A DNA stretch of 64,000 nt, from positions 10,775 through 74,774 of the forward strand of contig JAJZZB010000001.1 in assembly GCA_021797795.1 (NCBI GenBank), read 5' to 3'. Each line of letters begins with the position of its first letter. Positions within the stretch are counted from its first letter, which is position 1. The notes beneath the pieces are model-generated. The model saw only the letters and a program-made list of their open reading frames with translations. It searched no databases and had not been told where the DNA came from. Positions 7,420-56,152 of the stretch are shown in pieces. Made by a program: the position numbers and the translations under genes. This DNA comes from Actinomycetes bacterium. GTDB taxonomy: Bacteria > Actinomycetota > Acidimicrobiia > Acidimicrobiales > Bog-793.

Positions 7420-7504
7420 GGAGGAGTGCGAGAGCGGCCGAATCGGCACGATTGGAAATCGTGTGACCTGCAAGGGTCCGTGGGTTCAAATCCCACCTCC
7501 TCCG
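7420..7504 (+). tRNA. tRNA-Ser (anticodon GGA)
   Basis: Hand-folded. Acceptor GGAGGAG/CTCCTCC; anticodon stem CACGA/TCGTG with loop TTGGAAA; a long variable arm; T-arm GTGGG-TTCAAAT-CCCAC; discriminator G. CCA is not encoded. Confidence 0.9.
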
Positions 7505-7888
7505 CTCGGGCCCGGCGCGGACAGGCCCGGGCAACCTTGGCGTGTCAGAGCCGCGCGCTGCGCCGTCCGTGCGAGGAGATCGGCCCGGGTGGCCCGCCCC
7601 ACCGAGTGGACAGGTCGCCGAGTGCAGGCACCAAGCCCTCCCGAACGGCAACCGTGGACGGCGGGCCCGCGAGCAGGCGGCGAGGTGGGCCCGGGCGACC
7701 TCGATCCCTCGCCTGACGCATCGTCGCCGACCCCCCAGCCGACGAGCCTCCGGCCGGTCTCCGGCAGCGTTCCAGGCGGGTGCTCGTCCCGCGAGGGCCG
7801 TTTGGGTTTCCCATCAGACGGTGCGGGTAAACCTCCGACGCCCGGGCAGCGCCGGCCGGGTGACGGGTCGAGGACGCCGGGGTGTCGG

Positions 7889-17221: not shown

Positions 17222-17707
17222 ATGACCGCACCACTCTCTGACGAGCAGGCGATGGCCATCGCCCTCGAGGAGGCCGCTCTCGCGGCTGCCGGCGGGGACG
17301 TGCCCGTCGGCGCCGTCGTCCTCCTCGAGGGACGCGTCCTGTCGCGGCGGCACAACGAGCGGGAGGCCGCCTGCGACCCGACTGCGCACGCCGAGGTCCT
17401 CGCCCTTCGCGAGGCGGCGACGATCCTCGGTTCCTGGCGCCTCGGCGGAGCCACCCTCGTGGTCTCGCTCGAGCCGTGCCCCATGTGCGCCGGAGCAGCC
17501 GTGGCCGCGCGGGTGGGGCGTGTCGTCTACGGGGCCGCCGACCCGAAGGCCGGCGCCTGCGGCTCGCTGTACAACGTCTGCGCCGATCCGAGGCTCAACC
17601 ACGAGCCCGAGGTCCTCCCCGGCGTCCTCGGGGAGGACTGCGCCGAGCTCCTCCGGGGCTACTTCGAGAGCAAGAGGGAGCCCCCGGCCCGCAAGCCGGC
17701 GGGCTGA
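17222..17707 (+). CDS. tadA: tRNA adenosine(34) deaminase
   Basis: HAEVLALREA and LEPCPMCAGA zinc-binding motifs; size 161 aa. Confidence 0.9.
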   Translation: MTAPLSDEQAMAIALEEAALAAAGGDVPVGAVVLLEGRVLSRRHNEREAACDPTAHAEVLALREAATILGSWRLGGATLVVSLEPCPMCAGAAVAARVGRVVYGAADPKAGACGSLYNVCADPRLNHEPEVLPGVLGEDCAELLRGYFESKREPPARKPAG

Positions 17708-17756: not shown

Positions 17757-20177
17757 ATGGACATACGGGTCAAGATCGCCGTCATCGGCGGGGGTGCCGC
17801 CGGCTGCAGCCTGGCCTACCACCTCACCGCCCTCGGCTGCCCGGATGTCGCCATCCTCGAGGCCGACGACCTGGCGAACGGCTCGACCTGGCACGCGGCC
17901 GGGCTGTGCACCCAGTACCACAGCAGCCTCAACATGATGCGGCTCCTGCAAAAGAGCGTCGAGCTCTACGACGGCGGCCTCGGCGCCGACACCGGCGAGG
18001 AGGTCGACTACCACCGCTGCGGCAGCCTGCGACTCGCGACGACGGCTGAGCAGCTCGACGAGTTGCTGGCCCGCCAGGCGATGGCACGCTCCATCGGCAT
18101 CCCCTTCGAGGTCGTCGGGCCGGAGGAGGCGGCCGGGCTCTGGCCCCTGCTCCGGCCGGAGGGAGTCCTCGGTGCCGCCTTGATGCCCACCGACGGGTGG
18201 GTCGACCCGGCCCGGCTCACCCGCGCCTACGCCGAGGGCGCCCGAGGGCGGGGCGCCACCGTCCTTCGCCGCACGCCCGTCCGGGCGCTGTCCTTCGCCG
18301 GCGGGCTGTGGACGATCGAGAGCGACCGAGGACAGGTTGTCGCCGACCTGGTCGTCAACGCGGCGGGCCAGTGGGCCCGCTCCGTCGGGCAGCTGGCAGG
18401 CGTGGAGCTGCCGGTCGTCCCGCTGCTCCACCAGTACCTGGCGACCGTCCCGCTGGCGGCGGTCGCGGCTCTCGACCGGGAGCTGCCGGTGCTGCGCGAC
18501 CCGGCCGGGTCCTACTACGTCCGCCAGGACCAGGACGGCCTGCTCGTCGGACCCTTCGAGCAGCGGCCCCGCAGCTGGGCCCGCGAGGGCGTGCCCGAGG
18601 GGTTCCACGGTCGCCTCCTCGATCCGGACTTCGACCAGGTCGGCGAGGTCCTCCAGGCGGTGGCCCGCCGCGTGCCCGCCTTCTCCGACGCCGGGATCCG
18701 CACCGTCGTGCACGGCCCCGACGGCTACACCCCGGACGGGCTGTGCCTGATGGGTCCCGTGCCGGGGGCGCGGAACTTCCACGTGCTGGCCGGGTTCAGC
18801 ATCTTCGGGATCGTCTTCAGCGGCGGTGCCGGCAGGTACGCCGCCGAGTGGATCCTCGAGGGCCAGCCCGGACAGTCGATGTGGGACGTGGACGTCCGCC
18901 GCTTCGGCCCCTACGCCGGCTCGCTCGCCTACACCGAGGCCCGTGCCAAGGAGACCTACGAGCGGGAGTACGCCGTCCACTTCCCGAACGAGGAGCTCGA
19001 GGCCGGACGGCCGCTACGCACCGACCCCCTCTTCGAGCCGCTGGCCGGCCGTGGTGCAGCCTTCGGAGCAGCCTCGGGTTGGGAACGCCCGCTGTTCTTC
19101 ACCCCGGAGCCGGCCGAGGCAGGCGAGCTCACCTTCCGGCGGGCGAGGTGGGAGACCCGGGTCGCCGACGAATGCGCGGCGGTGGCCGGCGGGGTGGGCG
19201 TCCTTGACCAGACGAGCGTCGGCAAGTACGTGGTGAGCGGACCCGGCGCGGCGGGCTTCCTCGACCACATCTCCGCCAACCGGCTGCCGTCGGGTGACGG
19301 GCGGGTCACGCTCACCCAGCTGTGCAACGGGGCGGGAGGAGTCGAGTGTGACCTCACGGTGATCCGAGTCGCGGAGGACCGGTACTACCTCGTGTCGGCC
19401 GCCGCCACCGAGACCCACGACCTCGCATGGCTTGCCGAGCACGCGCCGGCGGGCGGGGTTGCCATCTCCAACGTCACCTCGGCGGTCGGCGTGCTGACGC
19501 TGGCGGGACCGGCAAGCCGGGCGCTCCTCGAACGGGTAGCCGACGGGGACTGCTCGGCCGCCGGCCTCCCTGACTTCCGGGCGGTCGAGACGAGAGTGGG
19601 CGCCGCGCCCGCCCGGATCGTGCGCGTGTCGTACGTCGGTGAGCTCGGCTACGAGATCCACCACCCGATCGAGTACCTGAGGTACCTCTACGACGTCCTC
19701 CGCGACGCCGGCCAAGACCTCGGCCTGGCTGACTTCGGCTACCGGGCGCTCGAGTCGATGCGCCTCGAGAATGGCCACCAGCTCTGGGGATCGGAGCTCT
19801 CCCCCGACGTCACGCCGCTCGAAGCAGGCCTTGGCCGGTTGGTCTGCCTGCAGGGCCGGTCCTTCGTCGGGAGAGATGCCCTCGTCGCCCAGGCCGAAGC
19901 CGGGCTCGCGCGGACGCTGTGCTGCCTCGTGGTCGATGCCGACGACGCCGATGCGCACCGCCACGAGCCGGTGCGCCACGACGCCACAGTGGTCGGGCAC
20001 GTGACCTCCGGCGGCTACGGGCACCGGGTCCGCCGCTCGCTCGCCCTCGCCTACCTCCCTGTTGAGCATGCCGCCACCGGCACCCGGCTCGAGGTGGACC
20101 TGCTCGGGTCTCCCCGGATCGCCACAGTCGTCGACCGACCCGTCTACGACCCCACCGGTGAGCGGGTCAGGGGCTGA
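17757..20177 (+). CDS. FAD-dependent oxidoreductase fused to an aminomethyltransferase (GcvT) domain (dimethylglycine/sarcosine dehydrogenase-like)
   Basis: ATG 17757. FAD motif IAVIGGGAAGCSLAYHL. The C-terminal GcvT-like region reads SYVGELGYEIHHP. Confidence 0.85.
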   Translation: MDIRVKIAVIGGGAAGCSLAYHLTALGCPDVAILEADDLANGSTWHAAGLCTQYHSSLNMMRLLQKSVELYDGGLGADTGEEVDYHRCGSLRLATTAEQLDELLARQAMARSIGIPFEVVGPEEAAGLWPLLRPEGVLGAALMPTDGWVDPARLTRAYAEGARGRGATVLRRTPVRALSFAGGLWTIESDRGQVVADLVVNAAGQWARSVGQLAGVELPVVPLLHQYLATVPLAAVAALDRELPVLRDPAGSYYVRQDQDGLLVGPFEQRPRSWAREGVPEGFHGRLLDPDFDQVGEVLQAVARRVPAFSDAGIRTVVHGPDGYTPDGLCLMGPVPGARNFHVLAGFSIFGIVFSGGAGRYAAEWILEGQPGQSMWDVDVRRFGPYAGSLAYTEARAKETYEREYAVHFPNEELEAGRPLRTDPLFEPLAGRGAAFGAASGWERPLFFTPEPAEAGELTFRRARWETRVADECAAVAGGVGVLDQTSVGKYVVSGPGAAGFLDHISANRLPSGDGRVTLTQLCNGAGGVECDLTVIRVAEDRYYLVSAAATETHDLAWLAEHAPAGGVAISNVTSAVGVLTLAGPASRALLERVADGDCSAAGLPDFRAVETRVGAAPARIVRVSYVGELGYEIHHPIEYLRYLYDVLRDAGQDLGLADFGYRALESMRLENGHQLWGSELSPDVTPLEAGLGRLVCLQGRSFVGRDALVAQAEAGLARTLCCLVVDADDADAHRHEPVRHDATVVGHVTSGGYGHRVRRSLALAYLPVEHAATGTRLEVDLLGSPRIATVVDRPVYDPTGERVRG

Positions 20178-20288
20178 GGGCGACGCAGCGTCGCACAGCC
20201 GGGCCATTCTCCTCGTGCGCCCCGGCTCGGACAGGGCCATAGGGCGTCGCGTAGCATGCGTCATCGTCTCGTACAGGGGGCAGAGCCG

Positions 20289-20810
20289 ATGATCGGACGG
20301 ATGGCTGTGCTGGCGACCGTCGGGCTCGCGATGGCGACCGCGTCGGGATGCAGCTCGTCGGTGGCCAACGGCCTCGATGCTCCGATCAAGGCCATCCCGG
20401 CGACTGACGTCGTGATCGAGACCAACATCCAGGCCGTCGAGCAGGCGACGCAGGCGACGCTCGAGACCACGGGCTCCTTTGTCGACTTCAACACGGCCGA
20501 CGCCGGTGGGACGGCCGTGACGACGGGCCCCTCACCAGGACCCGCCGACATCTCCTACGCCCTCGTCGGCGCCGGATCCGGCATCATCCTCGCCGGCTGG
20601 AACCACGCCGACCGCCACTGCATCGGAGTGCTCTACGTCCACCAGGCCCTCTCCACCCCCGTGCTCGGCGAATCGAACGCCGGCACGTACGACTTCGTGG
20701 CCCCGGCATCGAGCAGCGCCGCGTGCAGCGCCGTGGCCCTCGCCGCCTCGAGCGGCGCTCCTTCGGCATGGCCGGAGTCACCGTCCAGCTCAGGATGGCC
20801 GCCGGCGTGA
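20289..20810 (+). CDS. putative lipoprotein
   Basis: MIGRMAVLATVGLAMATASGCSS is a signal peptide plus lipobox Cys. An RBS AGGGGG lies upstream of ATG 20289. Confidence 0.6.
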   Translation: MIGRMAVLATVGLAMATASGCSSSVANGLDAPIKAIPATDVVIETNIQAVEQATQATLETTGSFVDFNTADAGGTAVTTGPSPGPADISYALVGAGSGIILAGWNHADRHCIGVLYVHQALSTPVLGESNAGTYDFVAPASSSAACSAVALAASSGAPSAWPESPSSSGWPPA

Positions 20811-20845
20811 TCCCGGGGCGGCAGTGATGGCCTAGGCTCTCGGCC

Positions 20846-20931
20846 GGAGGGATGCGAGAGTGGCCGAATCGGGCGGTCTCGAAAACCGTTGTACGTCCTG
20901 CGTACCGTGGGTTCGAATCCCACTCCCTCCG
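20846..20931 (+). tRNA. tRNA-Ser (anticodon CGA)
   Basis: Hand-folded. Acceptor GGAGGGA/TCCCTCC; anticodon loop CTCGAAA; a long variable arm; T-arm GTGGG-TTCGAAT-CCCAC; discriminator G. Confidence 0.9.
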
Positions 20932-20935
20932 CTCG
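20924..20935 (+). repeat. left copy of direct repeat TCCCTCCGCTCG (tRNA 3' end, attL-like)
   Basis: An identical 12-mer occurs at 22657-22668. Confidence 0.55.
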
Positions 20936-20953
20936 CTCGCTCGCCGGCCGGTG

Positions 20954-20981
20954 GTGGCTGGCTGGCGAGCCAGCCAGCCAC
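20954..20981. repeat. perfect inverted repeat GTGGCTGGCTGGC-GA-GCCAGCCAGCCAC
   Basis: Read directly from the sequence, 23 nt downstream of the tRNA. Confidence 0.7.
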
Positions 20982-21012
20982 GTGCGTGGGGTGTTGACAC
21001 ATCGATCACCAG

Positions 21013-21789
21013 GTGTTGGCTTGGCAGTTCAGCGACCCGCGGGCGGTCCGCGATGACTGGAGCCCCACGGGACAGCATTGGCTCATGCAATCCTCCAGGC
21101 GATGCGGATGGCTGGTCACGACCTCTGGCCTTCCCTGCGAGAACATCGTGGCCGAGGGGAGCACGCATTGCGCGGCGGGGCACCCAGTCGCGCCGACAAC
21201 AACAGGGCCGACATCAGGTGAACCACTCGCGAAGATGTCAACTGGTCTTCCCGACGTGGGGACTGTCCTCAGCTCTCCGGACAGGGGGTCTCGGATGGGG
21301 AAAGGCGAGCCCACCGGCAGCGCTCGGAGCCCTTCGCGCGACATCGCAGAAATGGTCGTCTCTGGTGAATTGGAACGCGTGTCACCTAACCCGAGGTACG
21401 TCGAGCAACGCCTAAGGGAGGCGGACGAGTCCCTGAAGGCAGCGCAGATGATCCGAGAGCTCGAACACAGCTCTATTACGGCAAGCTACGACGCCTCCAG
21501 GTTTGCGATCGATGCCCTAGTGAACTGGGAGGGGTATCGGGTACCCAACAGGCCTGGTGCCCATCAGTCGACGATCAAGTTCGCCGAGGCGAGGCTAAGC
21601 GGAGTCATGTCAGCAGAAGAGATAGCTGGCTTGGACACCCTCCGCACCCTGCGCCATGCCATCGAGTATCCCAACCCGACGAGACCGCCTGCGCCTGACC
21701 CGAAGGGCTCAGATGTCAGCGCCGCGATCGAGCTTGCCAGAAGAACGGTCGCCGCTGTGAAAGCGGAGATCAAAACGCCGCGTCAGTGA
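21013..21789 (+). CDS. HEPN-like domain protein with Cys/His-rich N-terminal extension
   Basis: The C-terminal ~130 aa resemble HEPN helices (ASYDASRFAIDALVNWEGYRV...GAHQSTIKF...LDTLRTLRHAIEYPN). The N-terminus has RRCGW..GLPC..(12)..HCAAGH. The start is uncertain: GTG 21013, ATG 21085, or later. Confidence 0.55.
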   Translation: MLAWQFSDPRAVRDDWSPTGQHWLMQSSRRCGWLVTTSGLPCENIVAEGSTHCAAGHPVAPTTTGPTSGEPLAKMSTGLPDVGTVLSSPDRGSRMGKGEPTGSARSPSRDIAEMVVSGELERVSPNPRYVEQRLREADESLKAAQMIRELEHSSITASYDASRFAIDALVNWEGYRVPNRPGAHQSTIKFAEARLSGVMSAEEIAGLDTLRTLRHAIEYPNPTRPPAPDPKGSDVSAAIELARRTVAAVKAEIKTPRQ

Positions 21790-22396
21790 GGCCCCTTACC
21801 GACTGCCCCTCTCCGGCAAAGGGAAGGGACAGTCTGACAAGCGGATTCTTCTTCAGCTCAGCGATGAACTGATCCGTCGAGCTCTTCCACTCGCCGGACG
21901 ACACGACATAGGGCTGCACGTCCATCAAAAGCCTCCTCGAGACAGTCGACAGAGCGGCCCCGACCTCCATGACGCTGGCAGTCCCCACTACGACGACGTC
22001 GACATCGTGCGGCACCGGACCGGTCTTGCCCGCGTGACGCGCCGCCCAAGAGCCGAAGATGTAAGCGTCCTCGACGCCGGGCACCTCTGAGAGCGCCTCT
22101 GCGACGTAGACGTAGGGCCCGTAGGTGACGTCGAGCAGGCGAGCGAGTGGGGCGACTTGAGGGTGATCCCAGTTGACACCCACGAGATGGTTTCTCCCCT
22201 GCACCGTCACGGTTAGGTAGCCGTAGCTCGCCAACCTGTTGACCTCGCGGGCGACCGTAGAGAGAGTCGCTTCGAGAGCCTGGGCGAGCTCGGATACCGT
22301 GCGCGACACACCGGAGCGACACAGCAGTTCTCCGAGGAGCCGCTCTTGGAGAGGAGAGCGGAAGATCGGTGCGATGCCCGGGGCCTTCACTCGCAT
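21770..22396 (-). CDS. winged-helix DNA-binding domain fused to a minimal nucleotidyltransferase (MNT-like)
   Basis: wHTH: RTVSELAQALEATLSTVAREVNRLASYGYL. NTase motif: IFGSWAARHAGKTGPVPHDVDVVVVG (GS...DxD). ATG 22396 is preferred, being 7 nt after a TATAGT -10. The ORF also opens at GTG 22405. Confidence 0.7.
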   Translation of the reverse strand: MRVKAPGIAPIFRSPLQERLLGELLCRSGVSRTVSELAQALEATLSTVAREVNRLASYGYLTVTVQGRNHLVGVNWDHPQVAPLARLLDVTYGPYVYVAEALSEVPGVEDAYIFGSWAARHAGKTGPVPHDVDVVVVGTASVMEVGAALSTVSRRLLMDVQPYVVSSGEWKSSTDQFIAELKKNPLVRLSLPFAGEGQSVRGLTDAAF

Positions 22397-22403
22397 ATAA
22401 TGC

Positions 22404-22433
22404 ACTATAACTGGCGTTTATCGTCACTGTCAA
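22404..22433 (-). promoter_or_regulatory. near-consensus promoter (TTGACA-18 nt-TATAGT) giving a probable leaderless MNT-like transcript
   Basis: The minus strand reads CCCTTGACAgtgacgataaacgccagtTATAGTgcattatATG. The -10 ends 7 nt before ATG 22396. Confidence 0.5.
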
Positions 22434-22656
22434 GGGAGCCGCTCGCCAAGGCCGGATGCTTATGCATCCTTGGCGGCCAGTTTCTGTGAGCCTCCTGAGA
22501 AATTCTCCACGCGATGGCGGCGAAGTTTCCACGCGCTCCTACCAGGACTTCTGTCGGAAAGGAAGCCAAACCGTGCAGCGGACGGTTCTCCGGCCGACCA
22601 GCGTCTGCCCTGGTCACGAGCGCCACTTGTCAACACCCCGCTCGGGGGTGTTTACA

Positions 22657-22668
22657 TCCCTCCGCTCG
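22657..22668 (+). repeat. right copy of direct repeat TCCCTCCGCTCG (attR-like)
   Basis: Identical to 20924-20935. It is embedded in a tandem duplication of CCGCTCGGGGGTGTTTACA (22638-22656 and 22662-22680). Confidence 0.55.
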
Positions 22669-23000
22669 GGGGTGTTTACAGGAGCGACCACCGGCGAGGC
22701 TCCCGCTGGTGGCCCCGGGCGCGGACCCTCTCGCCGCGGCGGGCCGGGGGCACGAGCAGGACGCGGCGCCCGCCCCGGGCCTCTCACCGAGAGGGTCCGC
22801 CCCTCGACCGGCGCCGGGCCGGCTCCCAGAGAGGCGGCTCGCCTCCGGCCACCGCGGGCCGGGCCGCCGCACGATCGGGCTACGGTGCCGGTCAAGCCGG
22901 TGGTTCTCCGTAGCCTCGTCGCGGTGCTGTCGAGTAACACCCTGGGCTTGGGCTCCCCGTCCCCTGATACGCCGCCATCGGGCGCGGCAGACTCGCGCAC

Positions 23001-25760
23001 GTGAGCCTTCGCTCCACGACCTCGCATCCTGCCGAGCTCGTGCTCGACGCCGTGCCCGACGCCCCGACCGCCGCCCGGCACTACGTGCGGGCGGCGCTCG
23101 CCGGCCTGTCCCAGGACACCCTCGAGTCGGCGCAGCTCATCGTCACCGAGCTGGTGGCGAACGCCTACCTCCACGGCGCCCCGCCGATCGTCGTGCGCCT
23201 CACCCGCTCGGACGGGCGGGCCCGTCTCGAGGTCGCCGACACCGGACACCTTCTCCCAGTCGAGACGCGACCGTCGCCGGAGTCGACGACAGGGCGCGGC
23301 CTCTCCCTCGTCGCTCAGCTGTCGTCGGCCTGGGGAGTCGATCTCGCTGCCGACGGAGGAAAGGTGGTGTGGGTCGAGCTCGGTGAGGCCTCCGACGCCG
23401 GGCCGCTCCCGAACGGGCCCCGGATGGACGTGCCGTCCATGCTGAACGCCCTCGCCCCGGACGCGTCGGTACCGCGCTACGTCGTCCGTCTCGGTTCGGT
23501 GCCCACCGAGCTCCTTGTCGAGGCCAAAGCCCACATGGACAACGTGGTGCGAGAGCTGCTCCTCATGCAGGCGGCCGAGTCGATCACCGGCGTCGAGCTC
23601 CCGGCTCCGATGGCAGAGCTGGCGGCGGTCGCCACCAGAGAGTTCGTCGAGGCACGCGCCGAGATCAAGCGCCAGGCACTGGCCGCCGCCGCGCGGGGCG
23701 AGGCCGTCACCGAGCTCGAGCTCCATCTCCCGCTCTCCGCCGCAGGTGCCGGTGAGCGGTACCTCGCCGCCCTCGACCAGGCCGACCGGTACGCGAGAGC
23801 GGCGCGACTGCTCACGCTGGCGCCGCCGCACTCCCACCGCCTGTTTCGTGAGTGGTACGTGCGTGCTCTCGTCGAGCAGCTGCGGGCGGCGGCCGCGGGA
23901 CAGGAGGTGCCGGTCCCGCGGCCCTTCCCGCAGCTCCTCGCCGAGGAGGCCGACCGCCTGTCGGTGTTCCAGGTCGCCTGGCACCGGCTCCAGCTGCTGC
24001 AGAAGGTGACGGCCGAGCTGACCGGCACGCGCTCGGTGCAGGAGATGGCCGAGGTCGTCACACGCGCGTCCGGCCAGCACCCGGGCGTCGTCTCGTCACG
24101 CGTCTACGTGCTCACCCGGGGGCGCATCCTCCGTTCGCTCGCCTTCAACGGCGAACCCTTCGAGGAGCGCCACTACGAGGAGTTCCTCCTCGGTGAGAAC
24201 CTCCCGGCGGCGGTGGTGGCCCGGACCGGCGTCCCCGAGTCGCTCCGGTCGCTCGCCGAGATCTACGAGCGGTTCCCGGCCCTCGACGGTTACTACCCCG
24301 ACGAGCGCAGCCTGCACGTGGTCCCCCTCGTCGTCGAAGGTCGTGTCATCGGCGTCTTCTCGCTCACCTTCGTCGGGGGCGAGATCAACGACGACGCCCA
24401 GGTCGCATTCGTCCACGCCGTCGGGAACGTCCTCTCCCACGCGCTCGGCCGAGCCCGCGCCGCCGAGCGGGCCGAGACCGAGCGGCAGCGGCGTCTGATG
24501 CTGCTCACGGCGCAGCTCGACGTGCTGACGGGAATCGTCGGCGGGCAGCCGCTCGTGGACGCCCTGGGCGCCCTGCTCGCCGCCGTCGAGGGGGTCTCCG
24601 CCGATGGCGTGCTTGCCTCGATTCTCCTCCTCTCCGAGGACGGCCTGCACCTGCAGCACGGGTCCGCCCCGAGCCTTCCCCGCTTCTACAACGCTGCGAT
24701 CGACGGTGTCGCCATCGGCCCGGCCGTCGGTTCCTGCGGGACCGCCGCCTACCGCCGCCGACGGGTGATCGTCGAGGACATCGCGACCGACGCCCTCTGG
24801 GCCGACTACCGGGAGCTGGCGGCATCCGCAGGGCTCCGGGCATGCTGGTCGACCCCGATCTTCGGTTCCCGTGGCCAGCTGCTCGGGACCTTCGCCATGT
24901 ACTACCGCCAGCCGCAGCGCCCCGCACCGGCAGATCTCGCTCTCGTCGACGTGCTGGTCCGTACTGTCGGGACCGCGATCGAGCGCTCGCGAGCCGACCA
25001 GGCACGCGAGCAGGCGATCGCCGCCGAGCGGGAGGCCGCCCTCGTCCTCCAAGAGAGCCTGGTCCCGGCGGTCCCTGCGTCCCTCGGTCCGGTCGCCCTC
25101 GAGGCCCGCTACCGCGCGGGCGACCCCGGTGTCCAGGTGGGCGGCGACTGGTTCGACGCGGTCGACGGCCCGAACGGGACGGTGCTCGTCGTCGGCGACG
25201 TGCAGGGCCACGACCTGAACGCCGCCGCGGTGATGGGCCAGCTCCGCACCGTCGCCCGGGCGGCAGCCGGCGAAGGCCAGTCGCCTGGTGCCATCCTCGC
25301 CAGCATCAACCGCTACCTCGAGCGTCTCGACTCCGACCTCCTCGCGACGGCCGTGGTCGTCCGGCTGGAGGACGACCAGGGTACGGCCACGATGGCGAGC
25401 GCCGGCCACCTGCCGCCGGTGCTCGTTCGAAGGGGGGTGTCGGGTGCCTGGCAGGCAGAGGAGGTCGTCGCCAAGACCGGCCTTCCTCTCTCGATCGGCC
25501 ACTCCTGGCCCGAGAGCGCGACCGTCCTCCCGGCCGACAGCGTGCTCCTCCTCTACACAGACGGCCTCGTCGAGACACGCTTCTGGGCTCTCGACGAGGG
25601 GCTCGGCATGCTGTGCTCCGTCCTCGAAGCCCTGCCGCCCGACGCTGGGCTCACCGAAGTCCTCGACGCCGCCCTCGACCTGCTGCCCACCGGGTCCCGC
25701 GGCGACGATGTGGCGGTCCTCGCCGCCTCGAGGTCGGGGGTCCCCGCCGTCGCCCCGTGA
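23001..25760 (+). CDS. multidomain regulator: RsbW-like HATPase_c + GAF domains + PP2C/SpoIIE phosphatase
   Basis: N-terminus TELVANAYLHG...GRGLSLVAQLSSAWGV...GKVVWVEL. The middle region is GAF-like. The C-terminus carries PP2C motifs GGDWFD, VVGDVQGHD, YTDGLVE. Confidence 0.8.
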   Translation: MSLRSTTSHPAELVLDAVPDAPTAARHYVRAALAGLSQDTLESAQLIVTELVANAYLHGAPPIVVRLTRSDGRARLEVADTGHLLPVETRPSPESTTGRGLSLVAQLSSAWGVDLAADGGKVVWVELGEASDAGPLPNGPRMDVPSMLNALAPDASVPRYVVRLGSVPTELLVEAKAHMDNVVRELLLMQAAESITGVELPAPMAELAAVATREFVEARAEIKRQALAAAARGEAVTELELHLPLSAAGAGERYLAALDQADRYARAARLLTLAPPHSHRLFREWYVRALVEQLRAAAAGQEVPVPRPFPQLLAEEADRLSVFQVAWHRLQLLQKVTAELTGTRSVQEMAEVVTRASGQHPGVVSSRVYVLTRGRILRSLAFNGEPFEERHYEEFLLGENLPAAVVARTGVPESLRSLAEIYERFPALDGYYPDERSLHVVPLVVEGRVIGVFSLTFVGGEINDDAQVAFVHAVGNVLSHALGRARAAERAETERQRRLMLLTAQLDVLTGIVGGQPLVDALGALLAAVEGVSADGVLASILLLSEDGLHLQHGSAPSLPRFYNAAIDGVAIGPAVGSCGTAAYRRRRVIVEDIATDALWADYRELAASAGLRACWSTPIFGSRGQLLGTFAMYYRQPQRPAPADLALVDVLVRTVGTAIERSRADQAREQAIAAEREAALVLQESLVPAVPASLGPVALEARYRAGDPGVQVGGDWFDAVDGPNGTVLVVGDVQGHDLNAAAVMGQLRTVARAAAGEGQSPGAILASINRYLERLDSDLLATAVVVRLEDDQGTATMASAGHLPPVLVRRGVSGAWQAEEVVAKTGLPLSIGHSWPESATVLPADSVLLLYTDGLVETRFWALDEGLGMLCSVLEALPPDAGLTEVLDAALDLLPTGSRGDDVAVLAASRSGVPAVAP

Positions 25761-42241: not shown

Positions 42242-43426
42242 TCAACTGCCGAGGCACGTGCCGGTCCCCGAACGCGAGCCCACCGGGCGCCGCTCGGCCT
42301 CGCGCACCCGCTTCAGCACTCCGGGAGAGGCGAGCGCGTAGCCGATGTGGTCGTTGCTCGACTGGCGGGAGAAGACGATGCCGATGACGACGCCGTCCGC
42401 CTCGACGAGCGGACCTCCGGAGTTGCCCGGGCGGACGAGCGACTCGATCTCGTACATCTCCCGGGTGGTGAGGACGTTCCCGTAGATGTCGTAGCCGGTG
42501 GCGTCGAGCAGGCCGCGGACGCCCGCCGGCTGGGCGTTCAGGAAGGGTCGGCCGCCGGGGAAGCCGAGGACGGCCGCCTCGGTGCCCCGGCCGACGTAGC
42601 TCGGGTCGAGCCGGACCGCCCGGTCGGTGAGGTTCGCCACCCTCAGCACCGAGAGGTCGTAGCGGGGGTCGAACAGGACCGGGTAGGCGTTGTGGTAGCC
42701 GGCCGCGTCGGTCACCACGACGTGGTTCGACCCGGCGACGACATGGGCGTTCGTGACGACCAGTCCCGGGGCGACGACGATGCCCGAGCCCTTCTCGACG
42801 AGATCGCCGTGGTCGCACCCGAACGCCGTCACCTGAACCGTCGAGTTCCCGATCCGGGCGACCGCCTGGCGTACGAGGGCGGAGCCGGGCAGCCGGACGG
42901 GGGCGATCGTCCCCGAGTTGAGGACGATCGGGAAGATGTTGTCCCGGTTCAGCAGCTTCTCGATGGAGACGAGCTCGGAGGGGATCGGCGGCATCAGGTT
43001 CGAGAGGTTCTCGAGGATGGCCGAGTTCGCAGTCTCGTTGGAGATCGACGCCACGGGTGAGCTCACCATCACCGAGGCGAGGATCCACACGAACATGAGG
43101 GTGCCGACCATCGCGATGGCCGCACCCGCGCCGGCGTCCAGCTTGGCCATGCCCCGACCCTGGAACCTGCCCCACACCTTGGCGCCGAGCTGCCGTCCGG
43201 CGCCGCCGAGCAGGCCGCAGGGAAGGATGAGCAGCAGCAGCGAGACGAAGGTCCTCGCGAAGGTCGCCTGGATGTGGGGGCTCACCACCGAGACGACGGC
43301 GACGCCGACCACGAGGCCGAGGAGGGCGCCGGCGAAGGAGAGGAGCTGGACCGCCGCCCCGACCCGCACCCCGTGCAGAGCCGAGAGGAGGACGAGGACG
43401 ACGATGAGCCAGTCGAGCAGGTTCAT
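42242..43426 (-). CDS. MarP-like membrane serine protease (CvpA domain + trypsin-like S1C domain)
   Basis: Four N-terminal TM helices (MNLLDWLIVVLVLLSALHG...). Protease motifs TNAHVV and PGNSGGPLV. Confidence 0.8.
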   Translation of the reverse strand: MNLLDWLIVVLVLLSALHGVRVGAAVQLLSFAGALLGLVVGVAVVSVVSPHIQATFARTFVSLLLLILPCGLLGGAGRQLGAKVWGRFQGRGMAKLDAGAGAAIAMVGTLMFVWILASVMVSSPVASISNETANSAILENLSNLMPPIPSELVSIEKLLNRDNIFPIVLNSGTIAPVRLPGSALVRQAVARIGNSTVQVTAFGCDHGDLVEKGSGIVVAPGLVVTNAHVVAGSNHVVVTDAAGYHNAYPVLFDPRYDLSVLRVANLTDRAVRLDPSYVGRGTEAAVLGFPGGRPFLNAQPAGVRGLLDATGYDIYGNVLTTREMYEIESLVRPGNSGGPLVEADGVVIGIVFSRQSSNDHIGYALASPGVLKRVREAERRPVGSRSGTGTCLGS

Positions 43427-43439
43427 CGATCGGCTGCTC

Positions 43440-44024
43440 TCAGAGCGGCTCGATGCCGAGGTCCTCGTAGGTGAGGACGCGCACGTAGGGCACCGTGAGG
43501 CCGAGCTCCTCGAGGCGCGAGGACAGGTGCTCGCCCCGGTCGAGCATGGTGCAGACGCCGACGATCTCCGACGGCGTCGCGCTGACCACCTCGAGCGCCT
43601 CGAGGAGGGACCGCCCGGTCGAGACGGTGTCCTCGAAGACGACCACCCGCCTGCCGGCCGACAGCTCGGCGCCCTCGATCCGCCGAGCAGTCCCGTGCTC
43701 CTTCGGCGCCTTGCGCACCGAGAACCACGAGCAGCCGTTGAGGAGCGCCACGGCGTGGGCCACGGGGTCCGCCCCCATCGTCATGCCGCCGATGGCGTCG
43801 AAGGCGACGCCGGCGCCCTCGAGACCGGCCGCCACCGCCCGAGCGGCGAGCGAGAGGTCCCGGCCGCGGCTGACCGCTCTCCGCAGGTCGACGTAGTCGT
43901 GGCTCGACCCACCCGAGGAAAGGGCGAATGCCTGCTCCCGGCGCTCGTAGCCACGCGAGAGGACGAGACCGAGAAGGTCCCCCCTGAGCGACGAAGGTGT
44001 GGGCTCCCCTGGGATCGCGTCCAT
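43440..44024 (-). CDS. pyrE: orotate phosphoribosyltransferase
   Basis: PRPP-binding loop VVVFEDTVSTGRS; FALSSGGSSHDYVD. Confidence 0.85.
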   Translation of the reverse strand: MDAIPGEPTPSSLRGDLLGLVLSRGYERREQAFALSSGGSSHDYVDLRRAVSRGRDLSLAARAVAAGLEGAGVAFDAIGGMTMGADPVAHAVALLNGCSWFSVRKAPKEHGTARRIEGAELSAGRRVVVFEDTVSTGRSLLEALEVVSATPSEIVGVCTMLDRGEHLSSRLEELGLTVPYVRVLTYEDLGIEPL

Positions 44025-44104
44025 AGTCGGCGGCCAGTGTAGGCAACGCAGGGAGGTGCCCGAAGGTGGTCGCGCACCCCCGCGACGTGCATTAGACCAT
44101 TGGC

Positions 44105-44851
44105 ATGGCTCGCGTAGACGCCCCGGCGCGGCAGGTCCGGCGCCGGCGACCGGGGCAGGAGCACTACCACCGTGACATCCAGGGAGGGGGAGCCAGAGCC
44201 GCCGTCTTCGGCGTGAGCGACGGCCTGGTCTCCAACGTCTCGCTCATCCTCGGGCTCTCCGGCGCACACCCGGCAGGCTCGGTCATCCGCCTCGCGGGGC
44301 TGGCGGGCCTGCTCGGCGGTGCCTTCTCGATGGCGGCCGGCGAGTACATCTCCATGCGCGCCCAGAAGGAGCTCTTCGAGCGGGAGATCGAGGTGGAGCG
44401 CCGCGAGATCGAGCGGCACCCGACGGCGGAGCTGCGCGAGCTCGTCCACCTCTACGAGCAGCGTGGGATCCCGAGCGACCTCGCCGAGCAGCTGGCGAAG
44501 GAGGTGATGTCCAACCCGGTCATCGCGCTCGAGACCCACGCCCGCGAGGAGCTGGGCGTCAACCCGGACTCCCTCGGCCAGCCGATCCAGGCGGCGGCCT
44601 CCTCCTTCGTCACCTTCTCGATCGGCGCCGTCGTGCCCCTCGTCCCTTTCCTCGTCGGGGGCGGGACCGGCGCCGTCCTCGCCGCCATCCTGGCGGCAGG
44701 CATCGCCGCCCTCGTCGTGGGCGGCCTGCTGTCGTTCTTCACCGGCAGGTCCTGGTGGTGGTCGTCGATCCGCCAGCTGCTCATCTGCGTCGTCGCCGGG
44801 GCGGTGACCTACGCCCTCGGCAGTGCCATCGGCGTCTCCGGCGCCGGCTGA
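44105..44851 (+). CDS. VIT1/CCC1 family iron/manganese transporter
   Basis: AAVFGVSDGLVSNVSLILG, a cytosolic acidic helix region (EREIEVERREIE), and C-terminal TM helices. Confidence 0.8.
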   Translation: MARVDAPARQVRRRRPGQEHYHRDIQGGGARAAVFGVSDGLVSNVSLILGLSGAHPAGSVIRLAGLAGLLGGAFSMAAGEYISMRAQKELFEREIEVERREIERHPTAELRELVHLYEQRGIPSDLAEQLAKEVMSNPVIALETHAREELGVNPDSLGQPIQAAASSFVTFSIGAVVPLVPFLVGGGTGAVLAAILAAGIAALVVGGLLSFFTGRSWWWSSIRQLLICVVAGAVTYALGSAIGVSGAG

Positions 44852-53689: not shown

Positions 53690-54691
53690 TCATAGCAGGT
53701 GGTAGCCGGGAACGCGCTCGTGTGCCGAGTCGAGGTAGACCTTGGCCTCGGGCGGCTGGCGGAAGCGGCCGTGGCTCCAGCGGATCTCGACGTGGCCCTG
53801 GACGACCTGCTCGCCGTCGCCGCGGCGCCGCTCGCAGAGCGCGCTCCAGGCGATCCTCGGCTGGCCGCCCTGTTCGGCCTCGACCTCGAGGCGCCGGAGC
53901 CGGAACGACCGCCGCCAGTCCCACGGCGTGTCGATCCTCAGGCGGACCGGTCCCGCTGCACCCGAACCGAGGACGAAGTAGGGCACTGAGCCGATCCGGA
54001 GCAGCCGCCACAGCACGATCTCGGCGCTCGAGTGCGCGATGTTCCGCCGCCAGGCGTCGGCCGTGCGCTCGGCGACGGCACGGCACAGGCGGCCGTAGGC
54101 CCGCTCGGCACCGCTCGGCCAGCCGGCCGTGAGTCTCGCCGAGAGCTGGCGGCGCTGTGCCGGGTTGAGGCTCATGGCGAACATCGGCAGACCCGCCCCG
54201 CCGCTCGAGTCGAGGCAGGCCTCGTACAGCTCCTGGTACTCCTCCGGCGCGATCCGGGCGTACCAGTCCCTGGCGTCGCCCACCGGGGCGTTCGACAGCA
54301 GCCCCTCGACGAGGCGCGCCGGACTCGGGTTGTGCAGGATGCGCGACTGGTACTTGCAGCTGACGAGATAGACGTGGTCGATCCGGAGATCGGCCGGCAC
54401 GACCTCGTCACCGGGCGGCCGCCGTCCGCCGGTCCACTCCACCCGCCGGGGTCTACGACCCGCCAGGGCGTCGTCGGCCAGGAGGAAGGCCCGTCCGTTC
54501 GCCCAGCCCTGGCGGAACTCCTCGGAGTGTGCGCCGTCGAGGAAGAGCCGCACCAGGCGGGTCCACTCCTCGGGGGCGAGGTCGGAGAAGGCCGGTGGCG
54601 GGACGAGAGCGCCCATCAGCTGCTCGAGTGGCGCTCCGGTGGCGCCGAGCGCCGTCGAGAGCTCGGTGACGAAGGTCCGGTCGGAGGGCAC
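53690..54691 (-). CDS. hypothetical protein; candidate restriction endonuclease partner of the upstream methyltransferase
   Basis: 333-aa ORF whose GTG start lies 3 nt after the MTase stop. Codon third positions are GC-rich. A possible PD...SxK-type motif is PADLRIDHVYLVSCKY. No domain was recognised with certainty. Confidence 0.6.
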   Translation of the reverse strand: MPSDRTFVTELSTALGATGAPLEQLMGALVPPPAFSDLAPEEWTRLVRLFLDGAHSEEFRQGWANGRAFLLADDALAGRRPRRVEWTGGRRPPGDEVVPADLRIDHVYLVSCKYQSRILHNPSPARLVEGLLSNAPVGDARDWYARIAPEEYQELYEACLDSSGGAGLPMFAMSLNPAQRRQLSARLTAGWPSGAERAYGRLCRAVAERTADAWRRNIAHSSAEIVLWRLLRIGSVPYFVLGSGAAGPVRLRIDTPWDWRRSFRLRRLEVEAEQGGQPRIAWSALCERRRGDGEQVVQGHVEIRWSHGRFRQPPEAKVYLDSAHERVPGYHLL

Positions 54692-54694
54692 GCC

Positions 54695-56152
54695 TCAGCG
54701 AGGGTCGCGGCCGGCCTCGGCGTACCGGCAGAGTCGCTCCCGGTCGGCGTCGTTCAGGAGCTCCACGACGTCGAAGACGGCGCCCGACGGTCCCCTGAGG
54801 GCGTCGAGGGCGAGGCGCCCGGCGCTGTTGCGGGAGGGGACGTCGGTCGTGAGCAGGACGAGGGCGGCGTCGGGATCGCTCGCGTGGAGCACCGCCGCCC
54901 GGCCGAGGGCACGCCAGAGCAGCTCGGCGCGCCGCAGTCCCCCCCTCGTGGCGGTGAAGGCGCCGGAGAGGTCGAAGGCCCACCTGCCGCCGGTGCGGTC
55001 GCGGGCGGTGAAGTGCAGCTCGAGACCGGCTCCGGCCACCTTCACGTCCCGGCGCACGTCGAGGAAGCCGACCTCGCCGAGAAGGGTCTCGGCGAGCTCC
55101 CTTGCGAGGCGGCCTTCGATCAGGCCGCTGGCGAAGCCTTCCCGCCCGTCGTGGTCCGGGCGCCCGGCGGGCAGCCGGACCGCCGGCCGGGCGCCCCCCT
55201 CCCGGTCGAGCCGCCGTCGCTCGTCCGCCACCCGCTGGCGGGCCTGGTCGCAGTAGGTCGCGTCGGTGTCGAAGCCGACGAAGTGGCGGCCGCGGCCGAG
55301 GGCAGCGACGGCCGTCGTACCGGAGCCCATGAAGGGGTCGAGGACGATGTCGCCCTCGTAGGTGTAGAGGTCGATCAACCGGGCCGGCAGGCCGACCGGG
55401 AACGGCGCCGGGTGGTTCACCCGCCTGGCGCTCTCGGGCGGGAGCTCCCACAGGTCCGTGGTCGCCTCGAGGAACTCGTCCCGGCCGATGGTCGCCGTCG
55501 ACGGCAGGCCGCGCCGGCGGCGCTCCTCCGGCCTGAGCGCCCGGTCGAAGCGGCCCTTGCTCGCGATGACGATGCGCTCGGTCACGTCCCGCAGCACCGG
55601 GTTGCTCGGATGCTGGAAGGTCCCCCAGGCGCACGAGCCGCCGGCCGCCCTGCCCTTCCACCAGACCACCTCCCCCCGCAGCAGCAGGCCGAGCTCCTGC
55701 AGGATCGAGGTCACGTCGCCGGCGAGCGACCGGTACGGGCGCCGGCCGAGGTTGGCGACGTTGACGGCGATGCGGCCCCCCGGCTCGAGCACCCGCTTGC
55801 ACTCCGAGAGGACGTCGCGCAGCAGGGCGAGGTACTCGAAGTAGCTCCCCGGCACCCCGTTGTGCCCGAGGCTCTCCTCGTACTCCTTGCCGGCGAAGTA
55901 CGGCGGAGAGGTGACGACGAGGGCAACCGAGCTCGCCTCGAGGGCGCTCATCGAGCGGGCGTCCCCGTGGTAGATGACGTCGAAGGCGCTCGGGAGGGCA
56001 ACGTCGTCGTCGGGGCTCAGCTCGGGCGAGACGAAGCGGTCGTAGAAGGCCGAGGCGTCGTGGCTCTCGCGCCGGGACGACCCGAAGCGGGCCGTCGAGG
56101 TCGCCCGGCGGGCGCGGGGCCGGGACGGCTGCGAGGCGGTGTCGAGGCTCAC
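54695..56152 (-). CDS. site-specific DNA methyltransferase, beta-class (motif IV SPPY before motif I), with extra C-terminal domain
   Basis: VVTSPPYFAGKEYE (motif IV) precedes VLDPFMGSGTTAVAA (motif I). NHPAPFP is also present. About 150 aa beyond the MTase core are unassigned. Confidence 0.85.
   Translation of the reverse strand: MSLDTASQPSRPRARRATSTARFGSSRRESHDASAFYDRFVSPELSPDDDVALPSAFDVIYHGDARSMSALEASSVALVVTSPPYFAGKEYEESLGHNGVPGSYFEYLALLRDVLSECKRVLEPGGRIAVNVANLGRRPYRSLAGDVTSILQELGLLLRGEVVWWKGRAAGGSCAWGTFQHPSNPVLRDVTERIVIASKGRFDRALRPEERRRRGLPSTATIGRDEFLEATTDLWELPPESARRVNHPAPFPVGLPARLIDLYTYEGDIVLDPFMGSGTTAVAALGRGRHFVGFDTDATYCDQARQRVADERRRLDREGGARPAVRLPAGRPDHDGREGFASGLIEGRLARELAETLLGEVGFLDVRRDVKVAGAGLELHFTARDRTGGRWAFDLSGAFTATRGGLRRAELLWRALGRAAVLHASDPDAALVLLTTDVPSRNSAGRLALDALRGPSGAVFDVVELLNDADRERLCRYAEAGRDPR

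Follow-up and report, generated by a model that had tools for sequence, protein, structure and literature searches.

The 3′ flank of a tRNA-Ser(CGA) gene was analysed in a 64-kb stretch of DNA from an uncultured actinomycete (assembly GCA_021797795.1, contig JAJZZB010000001.1, positions 10,775 to 74,774). This whole stretch is called the window, and coordinates refer to it. Directly after the tRNA gene lies an islet of about 1.7 kb with low GC content, which holds one gene for a HEPN protein and one for a winged helix-turn-helix (wHTH) nucleotidyltransferase (NTase). Contigs identical to the window were found in the metagenome-assembled genome GCA_027417635.1 and in several ENA and Logan assemblies. 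The tRNA gene (20846-20932, + strand) was identified using ARAGORN and Rfam (RF00005, 51.7 bits). It is complete and intact; a preliminary description of this DNA had placed its end at 20931. The discriminator G is position 20931 and the CCA is not encoded. The tRNA sequence is identical in three relatives (L002, L033 and L092), and an Rfam scan of 20700-23100 yielded nothing besides this tRNA.

The HEPN gene (21295-21789, + strand; 164 aa, the length also called in public assemblies) encodes the presumed toxin and was matched by the PADLOC profile PDC-M05B (E = 7.5e-9). The NTase gene (21770-22396, − strand; 208 aa) encodes an ArsR-type winged helix followed by an NTase of the minimal nucleotidyltransferase (MNT) type and was matched by PDC-M05A (E = 2.7e-42). 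The two genes are convergent and their 3′ ends overlap by 20 nt, both PDC-M05 profiles being matched by adjacent, overlapping genes. PDC-M05 has been described as a candidate system of an NTase and a HEPN protein that resembles toxin–antitoxin (TA) systems and whose antiviral role is unconfirmed (PMC12988326). The preliminary description had listed a HEPN-like gene, a wHTH-NTase gene and no recombinase, and had proposed a cargo of TA or defence type. The gene content was confirmed, and the PDC-M05 profile and fold matches agree with such a cargo.

The Pfam HEPN score of the 164-aa protein was 19.1 bits, under the 22-bit cut-off. Its AlphaFold2 model (pLDDT 94.4) gave 2hsb as the best PDB match (TMt 0.84), which is the archaeal HEPN protein AF_0298, and also matched 1wol and the HEPN domain of sacsin. 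The family has 181 representatives among 1.84 billion proteins. Across 40 members R69, H90, R120 and Y125 were invariant and E124 nearly so, which defines an R-x4-Y motif of the form R-[NH]-x-x-E-Y (LRTLRHAIEY in the window). No His is found at the canonical position, and a Tyr stands in place of the catalytic His of HEPN RNases. In HepT, the motif RX4HXY provides the catalytic Arg and His, and its Tyr accepts AMP (PMC11586414). The chemistry of the present family may, judging from these residues, be different from that of HepT.

One contig of sample ERZ27237515 (L074) agrees fully with the window as far as 21416, a position within the HEPN gene, and continues into unrelated sequence with an ORF (open reading frame) beginning MPVPRKSPYVLDLSTDQRRELEARARRYTSPYRVVVRAKIVL. 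The break looks like an insertion sequence (IS) that disrupted the presumed toxin gene. The insertion is polymorphic, because a second contig of the same sample (L081) carries the HEPN gene intact. A 21-nt stretch of the insert has 95% identity with sequence next to the IS630-type genes (HTH + DDE_3) of L077, the contig with the closest homologue of the cassette, and the 42-aa fragment encoded by the insert gave no Pfam match.

For the NTase, a profile of homologues matched ArsR/SmtB structures (9e-6). The top PDB match of its AlphaFold2 model (pLDDT 87.8) was 8xeo_B, an MNT antitoxin, with further matches to 8xeh_E, 6m6u, 7bxo and SmtB. Among 35 homologues G115, S116 and D133 were invariant and D131 nearly so, corresponding to the GS...DxD signature. 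The protein is a predicted antitoxin and autoregulator. A putative sigma-70-type promoter precedes its gene (TTGACA-18 nt-TATAGT, 22404-22433, − strand, 11 of 12 positions), and nothing else promoter-like was found in 20700-23100. From its location, the NTase mRNA would be leaderless and begin at the ATG at 22396. An AT-rich, partly palindromic segment (22396-22440, − strand) covers the −10 element and the NTase start codon, and a counterpart, GCATATAACGC-N10-GCGTTATATGC, is present at 2930-2990 of L077. This palindrome is likely an autoregulatory operator for the winged helix. From what is known of the family, the HEPN protein would act as a toxin, and the wHTH/MNT protein would neutralise it and repress its own leaderless promoter.

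The homologue in L077 is 59% identical, has convergent genes and adjoins IS110- and IS630-type genes. More distant homologues form an operon in one direction, NTase then HEPN, and are located on Mycobacterium and Rhodococcus plasmids and on other contigs of uncultured bacteria. Viral contigs were scanned for relatives of the NTase and none was found. The preliminary description had suggested a search for the same cassette next to recombinases; the closest homologues adjoin IS elements or are carried on plasmids, and do not adjoin integrases. The pairing of MNT and HEPN proteins is shared with the type VII TA system HepT/MntA, and both folds match solved ones. Differences from HepT/MntA are the N-terminal ArsR-type winged helix on the NTase, the R-x4-Y motif (R120, Y125) in place of RX4HXY, and the convergent genes, here and in L077, in place of one operon. 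Toxicity, AMPylation and an antiviral role of this PDC-M05 branch are predictions from the family.

GC content drops from about 0.72-0.75 to about 0.61 in the islet. Nowhere in the window is GC lower than in this 1.7-kb stretch (0.627 versus a mean of 0.715, sd 0.025). Change points were placed at 20992 and 22684 by a three-segment likelihood fit, with support intervals of 20806-21235 (left) and 22561-22715 (right). GC at third codon positions (GC3) is 0.70 for the HEPN gene and 0.77 for the NTase gene, compared with 0.87-0.91 for the neighbouring genes. Among window ORFs with a coding-like GC pattern, GC3 below 0.80 occurs otherwise only in overlapping or doubtful frames. The preliminary description had reported, from hand counts, a fall in GC between two copies of a 12-mer taken from the tRNA end, and had proposed a calculation of GC and codon usage; the fall was borne out by the change points, and both GC and GC3 were low in the islet, which speaks for a foreign origin. 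A second low-GC stretch, at 56-61 kb, was considered as a helper island and rejected, having native GC3 (0.94) and encoding a peptide ABC transporter.

Relatives were compared at the same site. A sister species (L033, L087, L088, L089 and L002; about 89% nucleotide identity, flank proteins 87-91% identical) aligns to the window as far as 20935, where the BLAST alignments of L002 and L033 stop, and its similarity resumes at about 22874. The 1.57 kb between these flanks comprise three small ORFs and HicA/HicB. In L092, a relative with a flanking protein 58% identical, the same tRNA is followed by PIN/VapC and a FitA-like ribbon-helix-helix antitoxin. In L075 (ERZ27233564), which belongs to the window's own species, 1,261 nt (19673-20933) are 100% identical, and the sequence after the tRNA (…TCCCTCCGCT/GTGTTCGCCAGGG…) consists of 134 nt that match nothing else fetched and reach the contig end; it appears to be a fourth occupant of the site. 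Divergence among the window, L033/L087, L092 and L075 begins 2-4 nt past the discriminator in every case (three independent comparisons), so that the insertion directly 3′ of the tRNA claimed in the preliminary description holds at its left boundary. Compared with their flanks, the islets holding HicAB and VapBC likewise have low GC (0.65) and GC3 (0.72-0.83). Islet sizes are 0.8-1.9 kb, each islet being essentially one TA module, and none of the site variants encodes a recombinase. The comparison with relatives that the preliminary description had proposed thus returned different TA cassettes.

The presence of unrelated TA modules of low GC and GC3 directly after the same tRNA argues that the site is a hotspot. 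We consider it somewhat probable that the 3′ flank of tRNA-Ser(CGA) is a cassette-replacement hotspot and that its occupant in the window is an acquired HEPN/MNT module of PDC-M05 type, about 1.7 kb long. The preliminary description was correct in what it described, and the data support its core idea, that the islet at the tRNA was acquired and has no integrase.

Strain variation was examined in the most divergent strain of the same species (L064/L071, ERZ27237159). In 3,990 nt of flank 29 single-nucleotide polymorphisms (SNPs) were counted, and none across 20583-22981 of the window (2,399 nt, comprising the tRNA, the islet and a GC-rich spacer). The conditional binomial probability of such a tract is about 1e-6 by our own calculation. 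The flanks differ by 0.6-2%, with a cluster of four SNPs at 22982-22991. A 12-nt in-frame deletion (19685-19696) is present in the DAO/GCV_T gene of this strain. The SNP-free tract runs past both copies of the 12-mer and therefore fits homologous exchange with the flanks and not site-specific transfer.

Under the cassette-replacement reading, different foreign TA modules (HEPN/MNT, HicAB and VapBC) have evidently been deposited after the same tRNA in different lineages. Loss of a TA module is toxic to the cell, which makes the module hard to delete, and by this general biology such modules would persist as the hardest-to-delete residue. Within the species, the one strain comparison suggests that the islet spreads, and is kept, by homologous recombination in the conserved flanks.

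Several points weigh against this account. The HEPN family is without the canonical Rx4H motif, and on that ground toxin activity of the HEPN protein is not assured; the HEPN gene is apparently interrupted by IS-like sequence in one sample. The SNP-free tract comes from one metagenome contig, which is possibly a strain chimera. Neither an empty site nor an integrase-bearing version of any islet was found, and the insertion mechanism is for this reason unseen. Breakpoints at the tRNA end could also arise from selection against damage to an essential gene.

The preliminary description had predicted an empty site in which the tRNA is followed directly by GGGGTGTTTACAGG. This was found in 0 of 185,579 species-representative genomes and in none of the fetched relatives, a small sample of close relatives each of which has another cassette or a rearranged locus. 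If the attB of that description were true, an allele with tRNA-CTCG joined to GGGGTGTTTACAGGAGCG would be expected. Another 19 metagenome loci with an identical tRNA half were more distant relatives with the locus rearranged. In seven of these 19, inspected by eye and with no Pfam scan, no integrase-like product was seen downstream of the tRNA.

The 12-mer TCCCTCCGCTCG occurs at 20924-20935 (+ strand), where the homology of relatives ends, and again at 22657-22668 (+ strand), the core of the attR proposed in the preliminary description. Both exact copies claimed there were confirmed, and they are the only two in the window (shuffle mean 0.10; 0 of 100 shuffles reached two). With one mismatch allowed no enrichment was seen in the window (4 found versus 2.9 expected). 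The left copy consists of 8 nt of tRNA, namely 7 nt of the acceptor 3′ strand and the discriminator, and 4 nt of trailer. In an unbiased test, in which a 42-nt query spanning the tRNA end was compared with the 2 kb downstream, an exact repeat of any kind of at least 12 nt was obtained in 1.7% of shuffles (p ~0.017). The repeat is unusual and not compelling. The right copy falls inside 22561-22715, the support interval for the change in GC on that side.

Further short repeats are found at the islet borders. The motif GGGGTGTTKACA is present four times in the window (0.19 expected), always at the islet borders: at 20988 (+), 22628 (−), 22645 (+) and 22669 (+). Copy 1, GGGGTGTTGACA (20988-20999, + strand), is at the left GC change point. 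Copy 2 (22628-22639, − strand), which reads TGTCAACACCCC on the + strand, is its perfect inverted partner. Copies 3 and 4 (22645-22656 and 22669-22680, + strand) both read GGGGTGTTTACA, and copy 4 is at the right GC change point. Gapped alignment of the copies showed no similarity past 12 nt. Copies 2 and 3 make a 29-nt palindrome, TGTCAACACCCC-GCTCG-GGGGTGTTTACA. The tandem duplication claimed earlier for the right end is real: the 19-nt unit CCGCTCGGGGGTGTTTACA occurs twice, at 22638-22656 and 22662-22680. When the units are extended to 24 nt they show three differences, all in the first 5 nt, which give one unit its match to the tRNA end and let the other complete the palindrome. The probability of differences so confined by drift is about 0.005 by our own calculation, and on their positions the differences appear designed rather than drifted.

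These repeats bear on a reading in which the islet is an integrase-less element (20936-22668) flanked by att sites, of the cis-mobilizable element (CIME) or satellite kind, which would still be excised and integrated by a tyrosine recombinase acting in trans. This is the stronger of the readings in the preliminary description. Crossover would take place within TCCCTCCGCTCG, and the recombinase would bind the GGGGTGTTKACA copies. An exact 12-mer at both ends, with the right copy inside the GC-boundary interval, speaks for it, as do the left junction exactly at the tRNA end in all variants and the four motif copies that flank the cores. The palindrome, of 11-7-11 or 12-5-12 form, resembles a recombinase core site. 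The 3′ end of this tRNA-Ser also occurs in viral contigs, at provirus ends or in phage tRNA arrays of other phyla. These fragments were chosen for an exact match of 22 nt, so that they give no independent measure of length, and were uninformative on this islet.

The opposing evidence is of several kinds, and we judge this att-element reading clearly unlikely. Only 8 nt of the repeat belong to the tRNA. A tRNA-end repeat and terminal repeats were looked for in the islets with HicAB and VapBC, and neither was found. No integrase was found in the islet, among the genes at 13-30 kb (as called in public assemblies, with Pfam) or, in the rest of the window, among 20 ORFs of integrase size, and nothing supports the present-day mobilisation in trans suggested earlier. 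The motif and the palindrome were sought in the first unrelated loci fetched and neither was carried by any of them; viral contigs were scanned for the palindrome with one match, an ordinary phage terminator. The tRNA 3′ end followed by 0-30 nt and GGGGTGTTKACA had 0 matches in the species-representative genomes. The right end of the islet had been set at 22680, and homology with the sister species resumes at about 22874, 205 nt beyond the proposed attR. The identical tract of L064 overruns both cores, as in homologous exchange. Were the reading true, a circle junction …GGGGTGTTTACA-TCCCTCCGCTCG-CTCGCTCG… (also …GGGGTGTTTACA/TCCCTCCGCTCG/CTCGCTCGCC…) would be expected. Of the att footprint claimed in the preliminary description, the left junction at the tRNA end and the coincidence with the GC boundary stood; its weight was reduced by the 8 nt of tRNA and a p of about 0.02. 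As an att scar the 12-mer is only suggestive, and its roles as attL and attR, with mobilisation in trans, remain unproven and are partly contradicted.

A different unit would be delimited by copies 1 and 2 of the border motif. The perfect 12/12 inverted repeat GGGGTGTTGACA / TGTCAACACCCC, found at both GC change points, could bound a mobile unit at 20988-22639 of the transposase-less mobile insertion cassette (MIC) or miniature inverted-repeat transposable element (MITE) kind, moved by a transposase acting in trans and with the 12-mer coincidental. The IS110- and IS630-type genes beside the 59% homologue and the IS-like sequence inside the HEPN gene of one sample are in keeping with such a unit. 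It is opposed by the flanks TGCGT and GCTCG, which form no target-site duplication, by an inverted repeat not convincingly longer than 12 nt, by the lack of further copies in the window or the first loci fetched, and by the fact that no IS with GGGGTGTTGACA ends was seen. We regard this unit as very improbable.

It is also conceivable that the repeats carry no meaning, the cassette having entered by illegitimate or homologous recombination and the 12-mer having arisen by chance with the help of a low-complexity, CTCG-rich trailer. The palindrome of GGGGTGTTKACA would then be the cassette's own hairpin or a protein-binding site, for example an operator or insulator. We take this to be rather unlikely. 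The missing enrichment of the 12-mer with one mismatch, the unbiased p of only about 0.02 and the HicAB and VapBC islets without such repeats are all consistent with it, and the DNA-binding wHTH of the NTase needs target sites. Less easily accommodated are the right 12-mer inside the GC-boundary interval, the confinement of the 24-nt unit differences to the first 5 nt, and the distance of 200-300 nt between the motif copies and the only recognisable promoter.

Other functions were considered for the border motif. As a promoter it was rejected, TTGACA and TTTACA being present with no −10 element at usable spacing. By eye, it fitted the consensus sequences of attC and dif poorly: an attC would need a longer palindrome, and a dif site arms in a different orientation. 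One speculative proposal, which we think improbable, is that the 29-nt palindrome, the tRNA-end mimic TCCCTCC-GCTCG-GGGGTGTTTACA and the lone left copy are recombination sites of a family of minimal, recombinase-less TA elements. Such elements would carry only a TA pair and insert at the very 3′ end of tRNA-Ser(CGA), and a recombinase of the host or of a helper would move them, like integrative mobile elements exploiting Xer (IMEX), CIMEs and pdif modules, and the 205-nt stretch would be the stump of an earlier member.

That stretch (22669-22873) has a GC content of 0.824 and contains a non-coding spacer (22681-22873, no strand assigned). No similarity of 22669-22873 to L033 or to other fetched sequence was found, and the spacer, at 82% GC, gave no folding signal (z = −0.05). 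The spacer is missing from the closest relative and could be native DNA lost there or the remnant of an older insertion. Under the cassette-replacement reading, the 12-nt and 19-nt repeats and the four GGGGTGTTKACA copies would most simply be scars of the original insertion or insertions at the tRNA end, and 22669-22873 could be what is left of an older, related insertion. The left end of that insertion would have begun with the same CCGCTCG-GGGGTGTTTACA, and the HEPN/MNT cassette would have entered later, between this stump and the tRNA. This sequence of events would reconcile both right boundaries. The repeats define no demonstrably active element.

The locus was compared with known systems. 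As in tRNA-associated islands, foreign DNA of atypical base composition and variable content lies 3′ of an intact tRNA with a short repeat of the tRNA end. It differs from them in that none of the four variants has an integrase or a fragment of one, the tRNA part of the repeat is only 8 nt long, no empty site was found, and the islets are tiny (0.8-1.9 kb) with one TA module each. CIMEs are att-flanked islets without an integrase that are mobilised by a related integrative and conjugative element. The islet resembles them in being small and recombinase-less, with candidate attL and attR and repeated putative recombinase-binding motifs; it differs in that no cognate element or integrase was found in the 64 kb and there is no evidence of excision. 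Chromosomal integration hotspots are intervals between core genes that are turned over by homologous recombination. Here, too, the same interval holds unrelated cassettes with a tRNA at its edge, and the SNP-free tract spans the islet; the differences are that every occupant seen is a TA module and that the left breakpoint is within 2-4 nt of the tRNA end. Degraded remnants of tRNA-side islands are also known, such as the remains flanked by partial tRNAs that tycheposons leave in Prochlorococcus islands; newer insertions are described there as displacing older ones from the tRNA, with degenerate fragments and partial tRNAs left behind (10.1101/2020.12.28.424599).

The phenomenon is thus of a known kind, that of tRNA-side islands, hotspots and TA residues. 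New details are this locus, the three-way exchange of TA modules and the border motif. One site within a few bases of a tRNA end has been refilled with unrelated TA modules, none accompanied by a recombinase, which bears on the movement of TA and defence-candidate cassettes without mobility genes of their own and on whether TA modules persist as the last non-deletable part of a decayed island. The locus also documents an actinobacterial branch of PDC-M05 in which the NTase is fused to a winged helix, the HEPN motif is non-canonical and the genes converge. It overturns no current idea, and the mechanism given above is one that we infer.

Directly 3′ of the tRNA, and past the breakpoint, within the islet, lies a strong GC-rich hairpin (20938-20981, + strand) with perfect 13-nt arms (20954-20966 and 20969-20981) and a fold energy of −44.6 kcal/mol (z = −2.9). 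This hairpin is not present in L033, L092 or L075. It may serve as a terminator or processing stem of the tRNA transcript. At the other border, a 182-aa gene is called in some public assemblies at 22456-23004 (+ strand), overlapping the start of a SpoIIE-type gene. All three codon positions have similar GC content (0.71/0.70/0.73) and the sequence has low complexity, so that this is probably not a real gene.

In the HicAB islet of the sister species, a 56-aa ORF (L033, 4727-4897) without a Pfam match was considered as Xis-like and rejected, its resemblance to excisionase-type helix-turn-helix proteins being non-significant (PHROG 66, E = 0.11). Were it truly Xis-like, it would be the one sign at this hotspot of machinery for integration or excision. 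In L092 a TldD-like gene is found directly after the tRNA and VapBC.

More distant relatives (65-77% identity; L040, L043, L044, L051-L054 and L056) share one gene order: tRNA-Ser(GGA), a cytidine-deaminase-like gene, tRNA-Ser(CGA) and homologues of window 42.3-44.8 kb. The matching window segments are 7420-7505, 17240-17670, 20846-20932 and 42297-44840. From this shared order, 7.5-17.2, 17.7-20.8 and 20.9-42.3 kb of the window are lineage-specific insertions or rearrangements. The segments inserted or rearranged at the two tRNA-Ser genes have native composition. Farther along the window (53690-56152, − strand), an ORF of 333 aa without a Pfam match comes after an N6/N4 DNA methylase (485 aa, Pfam 8e-37), and the two could be a restriction-modification pair.

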